64,000 nt of DNA from Escherichia phage phT4A. Of this stretch, positions 54,317 to 57,247 are shown piece after piece. How positions within the stretch are numbered: the stretch's first letter is position 1; each line of letters begins with the position of its first letter. Location: sequence record NC_055712.1, one strand, 5' to 3'. The position numbers and the translations under genes were made by a program. Below the pieces are notes generated by a model. The model did not search any database. It saw nothing but the letters and a program-made list of their open reading frames with translations, and was not told where the DNA came from.

Positions 54317-54382
54317 AACAATCTCCGGTTTCGTTTCTATGTGTGTAAGGTATCATTACCCTACACACAACGCAAGCGATTT

Positions 54383-54583
54383 TTATTTTCCGTAAAGAAC
54401 ACAACATTTTTTATATTTTTCACGGGCTTTTTCTTCATTACTAAAGGAAACTCCCATTCCAAAATCAGAACCTTCGTAAGTAACATCCCACGATTCATAC
54501 CCATCTTCCGAATAATAGGAAAGTGTTATTTTACGATCTTCAAGAACAAGTTGTTCAACAACAATATCAATTTCAGTAGTCAT
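54383..54583 (-). CDS. hypothetical protein (66 aa)
   Basis: ORF track. Confidence 0.55.
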   Translation of the reverse strand: MTTEIDIVVEQLVLEDRKITLSYYSEDGYESWDVTYEGSDFGMGVSFSNEEKAREKYKKCCVLYGK

Positions 54584-54726
54584 AGTTCATTTCCATAATC
54601 TTTTGCTGCATCTTCGGGGGTTGCGTCCAGTCGATAAAGCTCAACGGCTAACGGACTGGGTTTGATTTCGCGGTTCAGGATCTCACTGATACCGCGAAGG
54701 AATTCGATATAAGGACGGAATCTCAT
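54580..54726 (-). CDS. hypothetical small protein (48 aa)
   Basis: Manual: MRFRPYIEFLRGISEILNREIKPSPLAVELYRLDATPEDAAKDYGNEL; ATGA overlaps at both ends. Confidence 0.4.
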   Translation of the reverse strand: MRFRPYIEFLRGISEILNREIKPSPLAVELYRLDATPEDAAKDYGNEL

Positions 54727-54974
54727 TTGATACGTACCGCGTTAAAAGCCTGGTTGCGCAGTTCATAAGCCTGTTCAAGCTGTTCAGTAGTGAACAGAGG
54801 ACTATCAGTGTTAGTGGTGAAACTGCAAATGGTTTTGTTGTCGGCGTTGACTTCTTCGACAACGATTTCATAACCCCAGATCCCGCTGTACTCACATTTC
54901 ACGTTCCGGTACTTGATGTAAACTGCTGCAACATCTTCTTTTTTGTAGTTCCGGCTTTTGTAGATGATTTCCAT
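54723..54974 (-). CDS. hypothetical protein (83 aa)
   Basis: ORF track; conserved leader upstream. Confidence 0.6.
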   Translation of the reverse strand: MEIIYKSRNYKKEDVAAVYIKYRNVKCEYSGIWGYEIVVEEVNADNKTICSFTTNTDSPLFTTEQLEQAYELRNQAFNAVRIK

Positions 54975-55045
54975 GATTTCCTCCTTCGTTTCGATGTGTG
55001 TACAATAACAGATCAGGGTTATCGAGTTTTAGCAATTTGTGCTAA

Positions 55046-55324
55046 TTATGCCATTTTCTTAGCGATTTTCCAGGAGGCTTTGAACGCCGGAACGTCTTCA
55101 ATATCAATCCAGAAACCAGATCCGAAACCATCACTATAGCAAGGGCAACCGTCGCAGTAGTTTTCCCAGGTCATCACTTCACCACCAACAGAAGCACCAG
55201 TTTCCATAGCACGTAATGCATCTTCAACTTTTTCCAGTTTTTCGGCGTTGTCGTCGTAAATGACAAAGTACCATTTACCGTTGTATTCGTTACCAAGTTT
55301 GATAGCTTCGCGAACAAGTTTCAT
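55046..55324 (-). CDS. hypothetical protein (92 aa)
   Basis: Start moved to ATG 55324, after promoter cassette and leader. Confidence 0.6.
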   Translation of the reverse strand: MKLVREAIKLGNEYNGKWYFVIYDDNAEKLEKVEDALRAMETGASVGGEVMTWENYCDGCPCYSDGFGSGFWIDIEDVPAFKASWKIAKKMA

Positions 55325-55362
55325 GATGATTTCCTTTTTGTCTGTTTCGTTTCTATGTGTGT

Positions 55363-55400
55363 AATATAACAAAACCCCTCACCATTGGCAAGGGGTTTTT
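55363..55400 (-). promoter_or_regulatory. hairpin-embedded early promoter cassette (PeSL-like)
   Basis: Minus strand: AAAAACCCC-TTGCCA-17 nt-TATATT-ACACACATAGAAACGAAAC. Confidence 0.6.
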
Positions 55401-55407
55401 GCAAAAA

Positions 55408-55668
55408 TTATCGTTTGATTGGGGTATTATCTATAACCCGTTGAATTTCCGAACGCATCGTAGAATACTGGCACAATTCGGTAAGCGCCCGATCCAGGTG
55501 CATCATAGCGTAAGAAAACTCTTTTCCGCATTTGTCGCATCGAGCGTATAAATGTAAATGGATGCGCCCGATCCCATCTACCTGACTATATTTCTTGAAT
55601 ATGTAAGGTTTTGCACCTCGATAGCCAGTAGCTTCATGCTTACACTCTCGTTTTTTGAACCATGACAT
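55408..55668 (-). CDS. hypothetical Cys/His-containing protein (86 aa)
   Basis: ORF track; CKHE..CDKCGKEF. Confidence 0.55.
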   Translation of the reverse strand: MSWFKKRECKHEATGYRGAKPYIFKKYSQVDGIGRIHLHLYARCDKCGKEFSYAMMHLDRALTELCQYSTMRSEIQRVIDNTPIKR

Positions 55669-56243
55669 TAATAATATCCTTGTACGTTGAAGCGGTCACA
55701 CAACAATCTACGTGTTTGGTTAGTATCGCTTTGGATAGAATGCAACATAGCGCTGAACATGTTTAGGTTATTTTGCATCATTTCCGCGCTCATGAGAACT
55801 TCCATACGCGCACGTAAGCGTTTATTTTCTTCTTCCAACTCAACCATACGGTCATATGCTTTGATGCGCTCTAAGGGCATATCAGGACGCTCTTTGAGTA
55901 CGCGAGCACGTTCAACCTCACAAGCATGATTTGCTTTCCAGTGGTTCGATTCCGCTTCAAATTTATTAAGGCGGCGGATCTCTTCAACCATCTTTTTGAT
56001 CATGTGTGGATCCATCATGTCGATGAATTTCATCAGGCAATTGGATTTTGTTTTGTTGTCAGCACCAGACCAAGACGAATTATACGTAACGGTAAACGTG
56101 CGGCCCATTTCATCAACAACCCCGATCTTGTTATCATCGGTGATTGTAGCCGCCCATTTATCCCGCATGGCTGTACAGGTTCCGCTGGCGACACTATGCA
56201 ACTTGTTTAATGTTGCATCATCAAATACAATTTCATCACTCAT
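55668..56243 (-). CDS. hypothetical coiled-coil protein (191 aa)
   Basis: ORF track; central heptad-rich region. Confidence 0.6.
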   Translation of the reverse strand: MSDEIVFDDATLNKLHSVASGTCTAMRDKWAATITDDNKIGVVDEMGRTFTVTYNSSWSGADNKTKSNCLMKFIDMMDPHMIKKMVEEIRRLNKFEAESNHWKANHACEVERARVLKERPDMPLERIKAYDRMVELEEENKRLRARMEVLMSAEMMQNNLNMFSAMLHSIQSDTNQTRRLLCDRFNVQGYY

Positions 56244-56250
56244 ATATGCC

Positions 56251-56649
56251 TCACATAGATTTCAAAATACGCAGAAGTGCGTTAGTAAAGATATCAGGAA
56301 CACAACCACCAAACAACTTATGATTCATCAGCGCTAATTTCATGCTGTGATTTTCAGTATATCGCCCGTTATGGATCCCCCAGGCAACGACATTACCAGG
56401 TTCATGAATAACTAAGTTAGTGAGAGTAACGGTCATGCGCTCTTTATCATTGATAGAGAATGAATAGCAGTAACCGGATCCGATGTCGCCGTAAAGGTTA
56501 AGGTCTTTCAATTTCCCTTGCTCATGCAAGCGTTTCATATGAACTGCACATGCATGATTAATGGTCATTTCGTCATCCCTAGCCCAATCATCAATACCAG
56601 AGGTATAACGAATATTGAAATAGTTAGTCAGTTCATTTGATACGCTCAT
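56251..56649 (-). CDS. hypothetical protein (132 aa)
   Basis: Start moved to ATG 56649 (SD GAGGT). Confidence 0.55.
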   Translation of the reverse strand: MSVSNELTNYFNIRYTSGIDDWARDDEMTINHACAVHMKRLHEQGKLKDLNLYGDIGSGYCYSFSINDKERMTVTLTNLVIHEPGNVVAWGIHNGRYTENHSMKLALMNHKLFGGCVPDIFTNALLRILKSM

Positions 56650-56827
56650 TAGAAACCTCACTTTTATAAAATTCTTTACCAGTCCCATTACAGCTACTGC
56701 ATTTGGGGGAACGGTTGCTATCATACCGCCCCGATCCGTTACATGCAACACATTTCCTTAATTTCCAGCCATACACGAACCTCATATAATAATCAGTTCG
56801 TGCGGCCTTGCGTTCGTGGAAATTCAT
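56633..56827 (-). CDS. micro-protein with DnaJ-type CxxCxGxG zinc-finger pair (64 aa)
   Basis: CVACNGSGR and CSSCNGTGK. Confidence 0.55.
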   Translation of the reverse strand: MNFHERKAARTDYYMRFVYGWKLRKCVACNGSGRYDSNRSPKCSSCNGTGKEFYKSEVSNERIK

Positions 56828-56958
56828 TCGATTTCTACCGAGTAACCTTCTTTACGTTTTTGGTCAGCGAAATTTCTTGCGCCTCCCCAATCGTAACAGG
56901 TTCTACGACCAACTTCTGAATCATTATGAAACCAAATCACGGTATATCGCTTTCCCAT
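56824..56958 (-). CDS. hypothetical small protein (44 aa)
   Basis: Manual: MGKRYTVIWFHNDSEVGRRTCYDWGGARNFADQKRKEGYSVEIE; strong SD TAAGAGG; ATGA overlap downstream. Confidence 0.45.
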   Translation of the reverse strand: MGKRYTVIWFHNDSEVGRRTCYDWGGARNFADQKRKEGYSVEIE

Positions 56959-56967
56959 AATAACCTC

Positions 56968-57171
56968 TTAAACTTTGTTGTAAACCTGAACCAACCACAT
57001 TTCGATGTTAGGCGCGTAAGTAACGTTTACCTTATGCATTGTGCGGTATTTGTAAGCGGCTTTGTATGCATCGAGTTCAGTCGGAACACAGAAAGAGAAA
57101 CCGTTGTCATAGCGTTCTGCGTTAGAAACTTCACAACCAACTACAGCGGCAATATTTTTGTTCATGTTCAT
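56968..57171 (-). CDS. hypothetical protein (67 aa)
   Basis: Start moved to ATG 57171, after promoter cassette and leader. Confidence 0.55.
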   Translation of the reverse strand: MNMNKNIAAVVGCEVSNAERYDNGFSFCVPTELDAYKAAYKYRTMHKVNVTYAPNIEMWLVQVYNKV

Positions 57172-57207
57172 GATGTTTTCCTTTCTCTGTTTCGTTTCGA
57201 TGTGTGT

Positions 57208-57245
57208 AATATAACAAAGCCCCTGCACTAATGCAAGGGCTTTTT
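57208..57245 (-). promoter_or_regulatory. hairpin-embedded early promoter cassette (PeSL-like)
   Basis: Minus strand: AAAAAGCCC-TTGCAT-17 nt-TATATT-ACACACATCGAAACGAAAC. Confidence 0.6.
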
Positions 57246-57247
57246 GA

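Follow-up and report, generated by a model that had tools for sequence, protein, structure and literature searches.

A start-proximal sequence block in predicted early-promoter cassettes of Escherichia phage phT4A and its occurrence in other phages

We analysed a 64,000-nucleotide stretch of the genome of Escherichia phage phT4A (NC_055712.1), referred to below as the window, for the occurrence and context of a short block, GAAACGAAAC, that is made of tandem GAAAC pentamers and lies in front of small genes. The window has a G+C content of ~41% and is skewed in gene orientation, with genes on the plus strand up to ~28 kb and on the minus strand past that point. The region of 54.3-57.2 kb, in which several copies of the block are found, is a group of small minus-strand genes annotated in relatives as "hypothetical protein." A megablast search with positions 54000-58000 matched 175 phage records, the best matches being Klebsiella phages of the genus Slopekvirus (Straboviridae, T4-like), namely RCIP0052 (97.7%, full-length), followed by Miro and KP15. 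The window is ~98% identical to RCIP0052 and Miro.

The common layout of the cassettes that carry the block is a -35-like TTGNNN (mostly TTGCAn), 17 nt, a -10 hexamer, 9 nt, GAAACGAAAC, and 8-19 nt with a Shine-Dalgarno (SD) sequence, followed by ATG. Seven such cassettes, one of them a variant, and two cassettes with a single pentamer were distinguished; each precedes an open reading frame (ORF), whose length is given in amino acids (aa) where noted.

57169-57243, minus strand: cassette 1; GC hairpin 57216-57243, -35 TTGCAT 57231-57236, -10 TATATT 57208-57213, ACACACATC 57199-57207, GAAACGAAAC 57189-57198, SD AAAGGAAAA, ATG 57169-57171 of a 67-aa ORF (56968-57171).
55322-55399, minus strand: cassette 2; hairpin 55371-55399, -35 TTGCCA 55386-55391, 17-nt spacer, TG-extended -10 TATATT 55363-55368, ACACACATA, GAAACGAAAC 55344-55353, ATG 55322-55324 of a DUF5417 gene (55046-55324).
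54972-55047, minus strand: cassette 3, the variant; T1-like 21-nt repeat AATTAGCACAAATTGCTAAAAC 55026-55047, -10 TATTGT 55002-55007, ACACACATC, GAAACGAAGG 54983-54992 with the second pentamer fused into the SD, ATG 54972-54974 of an 83-aa ORF.
54314-54375, minus strand: cassette 4; -35 TTGCGT 54370-54375, -10 TACCTT 54347-54352 with TGA before it, hairpin over the -10 and discriminator, ACACACATA, GAAACGAAAC 54328-54337, SD GGAG, ATG 54314-54316 of an 84-aa ORF.
50269-50337, minus strand: cassette 5; -35 TTGACG, 17 nt, -10 GACTAT 50309-50314, AGCCCTGTA, GAAACGAAAC 50290-50299, ATG of an 87-aa ORF (50008-50271).
33977-34045, minus strand: cassette 6; -35 TTGCAT, 17 nt, -10 TATAGT 34017-34022, GACCTTGTT, GAAACGAAAC 33998-34007, ATG of a 92-aa ORF (33701-33979).
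18954-19049, plus strand: cassette 7; T1-like repeat AATAGCACTTTTTGTTAAA 18954-18972, -35 TTGCAA 18981-18986 within a hairpin, -10 TATAGT 19004-19009, GTGTTCATC, GAAACGAAAC 19019-19028, ATG 19047 of a 96-aa ORF.
18320-18389, plus strand: half-motif cassette; TTGACT, hairpin, TATATT, GGGCCT, ATC, GAAAC (18358-18362), GTAAATC, and further on ATG.
61589-61651, minus strand: half-motif cassette; hairpin, TTGCAT, TATATT 61619-61624, GGCCTTGTC, GAAAC 61605-61609, AAAGGAGG, ATG.

At six of the seven full sites, sequence matching finds TTGNNN, 17 nt, and a -10 of the form nAnnnT; the site at 54983-54992 has a -10 and a weak -35. The -10 hexamers are TATATT, TATAGT, TATTGT, GACTAT, and TACCTT, several of them with TG upstream. 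The 17-nt spacer often folds into a GC-rich hairpin with a run of T's behind it. A scanning tool independently reported two terminator-like hairpins, at 55371-55399 and 57216-57243, with 12-13 pairs, and a promoter at 55363-55391; hairpins at 18975-19000 and 54340-54368 were found by eye, and the hairpin is weak or absent at 34007 and 54992. An SD and the start codon of a downstream gene follow the block at all seven window sites and at all nine sites of Miro.

The exact 10-mer occurs six times in the window against 0.32 expected, a number that none of 100 shuffles reaches; pattern counts place one copy on the plus strand (19019-19028) and five on the minus strand (33998-34007, 50290-50299, 54328-54337, 55344-55353, and 57189-57198). 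The five exact copies listed in the initial annotation are thus real, and the copy at 33998-34007 on the minus strand had been overlooked. The longer ACACACATMGAAACGAAAC, with up to three mismatches allowed, gives four matches against 0.03 expected, exact at 54328, 55344, and 57189 and with two mismatches at 54983, where the core is GAAACGAAGG. Partial copies had also been noted near 18355 and 61600. They correspond to the single GAAAC units at 18358-18362 and, on the minus strand, 61605-61609, each of which lies 9 nt past a TATATT -10, as the full copies do. The ORFs behind the motif are 67-96 aa long, and one of the seven belongs to a Pfam family (DUF5417, 55046-55324). As had been stated in the initial annotation, the encoded proteins are unrelated (every E > 1 in an all-vs-all blastp comparison of the seven ORFs) and the conservation is at the nucleic-acid level, whatever the downstream protein.

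Every copy in the window, including the GAAACGAAGG variant, lies exactly 9 nt past a -10 hexamer, whereas the distance from the block to the ATG varies between 8 and 19 nt. When the spacings of TAnnnT-(k)-GAAAC were counted, enrichment was observed at k = 9 only (15 vs ~4 in the window, 27 vs ~13 in Miro). For a genome-wide census, the complete Miro genome was put together from five annotated stretches and scanned for the block. Equal frequency in coding regions or on random strands had been named as the outcome that would count against a leader element; in Miro, all nine exact copies are situated exactly 9 nt past the -10 of a sigma-70-type promoter, in the sense orientation to the next gene and facing its SD and ATG; coding and antisense DNA contain no copy. 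One-mismatch variants number 27 in Miro, as chance would give: 26 of them lack a -10 hexamer at the 9-nt offset, and the remaining one has a -10-like hexamer and no gene start downstream. No block was found at any of more than 200 internal promoter-less SDs of Miro. Among the nine exact copies the -10, the six bases behind it, and the sequence after the block all vary, and the 10-mer is unchanged in each. Because its anchor is the -10, and neither the SD nor the ATG, the block is start-site-proximal and linked to the start site rather than to the SD. The original observation of a block between the -10 and the SD, common to unrelated small genes, is confirmed.

The 9-nt stretch between the -10 and the block ends in AT(C/A), or in GT(C/T/A) at 33998 and 50290. 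Since the usual start, 7 nt past the -10 and with a pyrimidine before it, falls on that A, we infer that transcription most likely begins there, and the predicted RNA would read 5'-AU(C/A)GAAACGAAAC, with TCGAAACGA at +2 to +10.

The cassettes strongly recall PeSLs, which are composite cassettes of a sigma-70 promoter and a stem-loop with an SD and ATG at the 3' end (PMC2839356; PMC4122927). PeSLs are known in RB49/phi1 and, from later work, in PST/T4 and nt-1/KVP40 (Arbiol 2010, PMC2839356; Comeau 2014, PMC4122927). For RB49/phi1 both promoter and terminator/attenuator activities have been shown experimentally (PMC2839356; PMC4122927), and crossovers of PeSL mini-circles were mapped between the -10 and the ATG (PMC2839356). 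Like PeSLs, the cassettes of the window have an AT-rich upstream region, a sigma-70-type -35 and -10, a GC stem-loop between these or over the -10, and an SD and ATG closing the 3' end; they are dense in hyperplastic regions before small ORFans, and indel junctions fall between the -10 and the ATG. With a sigma-70-like promoter, a GC-rich stem-loop, SD/ATG, clustering in front of small genes, and indel junctions inside cassettes all found, the Slopekvirus cassettes match, by their sequence, PeSL-type early promoter/terminator cassettes. PeSLs have not been described for Slopekvirus in the literature. The two sets differ in the -35, which is mostly TTGCAn here and TTGACA in PeSLs as published. 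Furthermore, the PeSL papers define the promoter, the stem-loop, and the SD and do not single out a start-proximal block; the word "leader" occurs 0 times in Arbiol 2010 (PMC2839356).

The block is nevertheless present in the founding PeSL example. In 30 kb of RB49, which were read with near-consensus promoters listed, the PeSLs carry the 13-mer ATCGAAACGAAAC, with three full and four degenerate copies in 17 kb:

RB49 60680, 58685, and 57732: full copies, CATAAT, then acaccc or gcacat, then ATCGAAACGAAAC.
RB49, same region: degenerate forms ATCGAAACGAGA, ATCGAAACAAAGG, ATCAACGAAACG, and ATCGACAACAAAGG.

As far as the searched literature shows, the start-proximal block is undescribed: a full-text search returned GAAACGAAAC, ATCGAAACGAAAC, and AUCGAAAC only in primers and eukaryotic sites, and no paper covered by the search contains the 13-mer. 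Its spread, detailed below, is wider than expected.

In the record of KP15 (GU295964), positions 2492-2529, 2856-2886, and 3679-3707 are labeled "putative middle promoter; discovered using MEME," and the paper accompanying the record contains no analysis of those sites. The Mot box of T4 is (a/t)(a/t)(a/t)TGCTT(t/c)A, centered near -30. A MotA-dependent middle promoter was rejected, as there is no Mot box and the -35 region is CTTGCA with sigma-70 spacing; for the same reasons the label in KP15 is probably wrong. Neither MotA nor AsiA is named in the annotation of Miro.

The same block was sought in other phages with a 70-nt query, three pattern scans of IMG/VR, and follow-up reading. The IMG/VR sample comprises 99 unique contexts. 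The phi80 type accounts for 52 of them, no two with the same operator set; there are also 13 T1-like contexts, 4 of the cyanophage type, 19 other promoters, and ~11 that may be due to chance. TTG stands at the -35 position in 68 of the 99 contexts (4.6 expected). The T1-like phage ESCO41 (Drexlerviridae) has TATATT-CATCTC-ATCGAAACGAAAC. Webervirus vB_KpnS-VAC2 and the window (55046-55399, minus strand) share the entire cassette, with the AATAGCACTTTTTGTTAAA in front of it, as well as the DUF5417 gene behind it. Since the DUF5417 proteins are 71% identical and the leaders nearly identical, this looks like transfer of a promoter-gene module across families, between a Klebsiella myovirus and a siphovirus.

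In phi80, the annotated pL with its CI operators, -35, and -10 continues into TACTCC-ATCGAAACGAAAC at the predicted start, and the 13-mer heads an untranslated leader of ~400 nt that contains nutL and precedes the N gene. Thus, pL promoters of the phi80/HK225 type share with the cassettes the order of -10, 6 nt, and ATCGAAACGAAAC, whereas they belong to temperate lambdoid phages, in which the block is followed by a long, conserved leader with nutL and then by N, with no SD and no PeSL hairpin. In T4-like cyanophages (relatives of S-PM2, S-WAM2, Syn1, and S-RIM44), ~30 contigs carry CCCTG-TAGACT-GATCAC-ATCGAAACGAAAC-GACCCATGACC with no SD, the block lying 5-6 nt from an SD-less AUG. These cyanophage cassettes are dense and repeated, with paired GTGAC(A/G)...GTG(T/G)C(C/A)AC elements and a GC hairpin upstream and with small genes beginning ATGAC(C/G) downstream; we found no description of them. 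In the T4-like Pseudomonas phage Milchi, ~20 cassettes read GGGGTTGTA...TACAACCCCTG-TATACT-GATCAC-ATCAAAACGAAAC, and shorter variants also occur; ATCAAAACGAAAC is one mismatch away from the block. The ~20 near-identical cassettes of Milchi fall within 16 kb (1500-17600), nearly one per small gene, an extreme PeSL-like density, and the hairpin GGGGTTGTA...TACAACCCC spans the spacer from -35 to -10. Finally, the block was found in one contig related to Vibrio phages and one related to Acinetobacter phages.

T1-like contigs carry a 21-nt repeat, aaATAGCACnnnTTGnTAAAA, followed after ~17-23 nt by a -10 and a ATCGAAAC-type start. We take this repeat to resemble an UP element (AAAWWTWTTTTNNNAAA). 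A paper on phage TLS reports aaATAGCACnnnTTGnTAAAA as a 21-nt intergenic repeat, lists its function as an open question (German 2024, PMC11447400), and covers the 21-mer alone, with no -10 or start block (PMC11447400). The repeat sits upstream of window cassettes at 18954-18972 (plus strand), 55026-55047 (minus strand), and ~50345-50365 (minus strand), and is optional in Slopekvirus cassettes. We collected 41 unique T1-type promoters by means of the upstream 21-nt repeat only, hence the set is unbiased for the start region. Their consensus past the -10 is n-n-c-C-y-C | A-T-C-G-A-A-A-C-(G/A)-A-A-A, i.e., cyC-ATCGAAAC(G/A)AAA. At each of the nine positions 10-18 nt past the -10, T occurs in 0-5 of the 41 promoters; AT[ACT]GAAAC is present in nine of them and the full 10-mer in none. 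Other half or degenerate members of the start class are present in Slopekvirus as well. By sequence comparison, then, the exact block is the consensus of a wider A/C-rich, U-poor, structure-free start class in early promoters of many phages.

The initial annotation had suggested that the leaders be examined for structure and covariation. No fold was found: over their first 61 nt, the seven predicted mRNAs reach minimum free energies between -1.8 and -5.8 kcal/mol, in every case with lower stability than dinucleotide shuffles (z from +0.68 to +1.45). With seven leaders that lack structure, covariation analysis is pointless. Rfam scans of positions 49500-58000 of the window and of six related loci yielded no credible family.

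A function at initiation or at the RNA 5' end is indicated by three features, namely that the distance to the -10 is fixed, that the downstream context is irrelevant, and that the upstream promoter parts are diverse. The downstream contexts include an SD at 8-19 nt, an SD-less AUG at 5-6 nt, and a ~400-nt leader before N. With moderate confidence, we interpret the block as the initial transcribed sequence of early promoters that are read by the host RNA polymerase (RNAP; sigma-70-type) within PeSL-type cassettes placed before small accessory genes. At the level of DNA and RNAP, a Y(-1)A(+1) context together with a T-poor, TG-free, purine-rich +2 to +13 region would allow efficient initiation and fast escape without initial pausing. 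At the level of RNA, a 5' end that pairs with almost nothing would leave the SD accessible whatever ORF is joined. An A/C-rich 5' end unable to pair with an arbitrary ORF suits a cassette joined to many genes. Being identical in many cassettes, the block could, as a side effect, provide microhomology for the deletion, insertion, and swapping of cassettes and genes.

Strong phage promoters offer a parallel. The RNA from T7 A1 starts with AUCGAGAGG and that from T7 A3 with AUGAAACGACAG. Like the starts of these promoters and of T5 N25, the block region from +1 to ~+13-20 has an A start and is purine-rich and T-poor, with no TG. Kammerer (in 1986) and Hsu and co-workers reportedly described such a downstream sequence region of strong phage promoters. 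Initial transcribed sequences change promoter output more than 10-fold via escape and pausing, and an effect of this kind is what we would predict for the block. In a library of 262,144 variants of +2 to +10 (Heyduk and Heyduk 2018, PMC5961368), slow escape was associated with two or three T's among the initial ~7 nt, many of them in TG steps, whereas GG and GA promoted escape and productive yield correlated with purine content (PMC5961368). By sequence and position, the block fits an escape-favoring start over +1 to +15, with an A start, few T's, no TG near +5/+6, and a high purine content. It differs from published initial transcribed regions in that its 13-mer recurs across phage families, whereas the published data show no obvious motif (PMC5961368).

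Several points weigh against this interpretation. The +1 position in this phage is assigned by a spacing rule, and promoter activity and escape are predicted. The block has CG steps at +3/+4 and +8/+9, and this dinucleotide was mildly pause-like in two of three promoter contexts (PMC5961368). The full block is present in approximately one-fourth of Slopekvirus early-type promoters and hence is not required for early promoter function; the fraction is approximate because the ORF and promoter scanners are crude and noisy, with ~16 early promoters called in the window and ~35-40 in Miro. Part of the sharing across families reflects horizontal transfer of whole modules, e.g., of the DUF5417 gene and its leader, which are also present in Webervirus. 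Lastly, an exact 10-13-mer retained from enteric phages to cyanophages is more specific than an A/C-rich, T-poor composition needs, which hints at recognition by some factor.

Such exactness beyond composition may reflect a specific recognition by RNAP, by the ribosome or its protein S1, or by another factor. In a stronger form of this idea, AU(C/A)GAAACGAAAC would mark early transcripts with a "start tag" conserved across many phages and recognized by a universal host component, either the RNAP initiation complex or, for the SD-less cyanophage leaders, the ribosome or S1. We regard this as rather unlikely; if true, the tag would be a discrete promoter/leader element unrecognized before and not a compositional preference.

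That the block might be a recombination hotspot was among the options raised in the initial annotation, and this option has direct comparative support. In a blastn comparison of the window with Miro, two high-scoring segment pairs overlap by 34 nt in the window (18996-19029, plus strand), and between them Miro has ~590 bp (56986-57571, genes Miro96-98) that are absent from the window. The 34-nt segment contains the motif and is common to two Miro cassettes. In a three-way alignment, the upstream half of the window cassette (21-nt repeat, hairpin, TATAGT) is that of the Miro cassette at 56909, and its downstream half (AGACAAAAGGAACATCACATG...) is that of the Miro cassette at 57541, the crossover lying within the shared GTGTTCATYGAAACGAAACA. 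At a second junction, 44586-44604 (minus strand), where Miro147 is missing in the window, a different shared leader/SD/ATG segment, GAGGAATACATTATGAGCG, is involved. The latter segment recurs behind several cassettes without GAAAC (28292, 44649). In addition, ~150 nt at 56828-56977 are missing from Miro, as seen from a blastn gap between segment pairs; this junction is away from any cassette.

Pushed to its limit, this option would make the block a pure recombination module with no role in expression, kept identical as a homology patch by copying, gene conversion, and exchange, as in PeSL shuffling and mini-circles. The two cassette junctions speak for it, the first in the shared segment that holds the block and the second in another shared leader, as do the crossovers between the -10 and the ATG in RB49 PeSLs (PMC2839356). 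The DUF5417 module, common to a Klebsiella myovirus and a siphovirus with a near-identical leader, points the same way, and neighboring cassettes at 54.3-57.2 kb also share ACACACAT. Yet the flanks have diverged around a 10-mer that is exact in all nine Miro copies, while gene conversion would homogenize the flanks too, and the same 13-mer stands at the same offset in marine cyanophages and in enteric phages, between which recent DNA exchange is not possible. Moreover, the block equals the consensus of an independently degenerate start class, and 10-13 bp are short for efficient homologous exchange. On balance, we consider an exclusively recombinational role an unlikely explanation.

Specific recognition of the RNA appears more doubtful. 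Under this hypothesis the tandem GAAAC would serve as the binding or cleavage site of a protein, whether a RegA-like repressor, a RegB-like endoribonuclease, or a host factor such as S1, and this would set the translation or decay of an early-gene regulon. A tandem pentamer conserved without change is what one typically sees at a binding site, the block is predicted to be single-stranded, and in cyanophages its position 5-6 nt from an SD-less AUG could aid ribosome recruitment. Miro is annotated with RegA-like and RegB-like genes, and the targets of T4 RegB and RegA lie, like the block, in the 5' regions of early mRNAs. The gene Miro148, "endoribonuclease, T4 RegB-like," maps to ~44660-45301 (minus strand) of the window, and the RegA-like gene is Miro42; the ORF at 45366-45968, next to the RegB-like gene, matches no Pfam family.

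The details of these targets nonetheless do not agree with the block. The RegA operator of T4 has an AU-rich consensus at the AUG and overlaps the initiation codon, whereas the block is U-poor and lies 8-19 nt upstream of the ATG. RegB cuts at GGAG, usually within the SD and with an A-rich 3' context; the block has no GGAG, which is found in the SD of only four of nine Miro leaders. The translational-repressor and endoribonuclease sites proposed in the initial annotation also conflict with the anchoring of the block to the -10 instead of the SD or AUG and with its absence from all of the internal SDs of Miro. Furthermore, the block occurs in T1-like and phi80-like phages, where it heads the ~400-nt leader of phi80 pL, and these phages are not known to encode RegA or RegB. 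Given the anchoring and this occurrence, a target of the RegA/RegB type is unlikely; no known RNA family matches the leaders either.

A DNA operator at +4 to +13, where a phage or host protein bound to the direct repeat would block RNAP and shut early promoters later in infection, is very improbable: a place just past the start is classical for roadblock repressors and the tandem repeat is exactly conserved, but the T4-like, T1-like, lambdoid, and cyanophage genomes have no common candidate regulator, with a period of 5 bp the two units face opposite sides of the helix, the degenerate members retain the composition and not the repeat, and only a subset of early promoters has the block. Other candidates were dropped, namely GTT sites of the T4 primase on the template strand (the motif is also in T1-like and lambdoid phages, which are not known to have a T4-type primase), a resemblance to the 3' tag of CRISPR repeats (unsupported), boxes of IHF, OmpR type, and CpxR type (wrong consensus or periodicity), the NAD-capping promoter consensus HRRASWW (the cassettes have C at -1 and T at +2), and complementarity to 16S rRNA (none is known).

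These cassettes bear on several matters. Sites deposited for Slopekvirus as "middle promoters" are re-labeled here as PeSL-kind cassettes that combine a sigma-70 early promoter with a terminator, and one such cassette has been caught at a junction of gene loss or gain. A specific sequence at +1 to +13 is common to early promoters of very different phages; published work on the initial transcribed region reports no conserved sequence motif. The unexplained T1-like 21-nt repeat is now linked to a -10 and a start block. If the block indeed improves escape or makes the leader independent of context, effects that we infer for both transcription and translation, it would be a compact natural "insulated" part comprising a promoter and 5' untranslated region, and it could serve as a useful marker to annotate early transcription units in phage genomes.

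Two further loci of the window are of interest. At 34038-34571 on the minus strand, a 177-aa ORF that is not present in Miro has an HNH_3 domain (Pfam E = 3.7e-7) and probably encodes a homing endonuclease; its insertion site directly precedes the 34007 cassette, the -35 of which overlaps the stop codon of the ORF. The other locus, at 451-545 on the plus strand, precedes a 569-aa ORF and consists of TTGACC-17-TAAAGT, then AGCCCA-TGTAACGAAACG-TGGGCT, and then a run of T's, where TGTAACGAAACG is a one-mismatch variant of the block situated in the loop of a terminator-like hairpin, 7 nt, not 9, past the -10.

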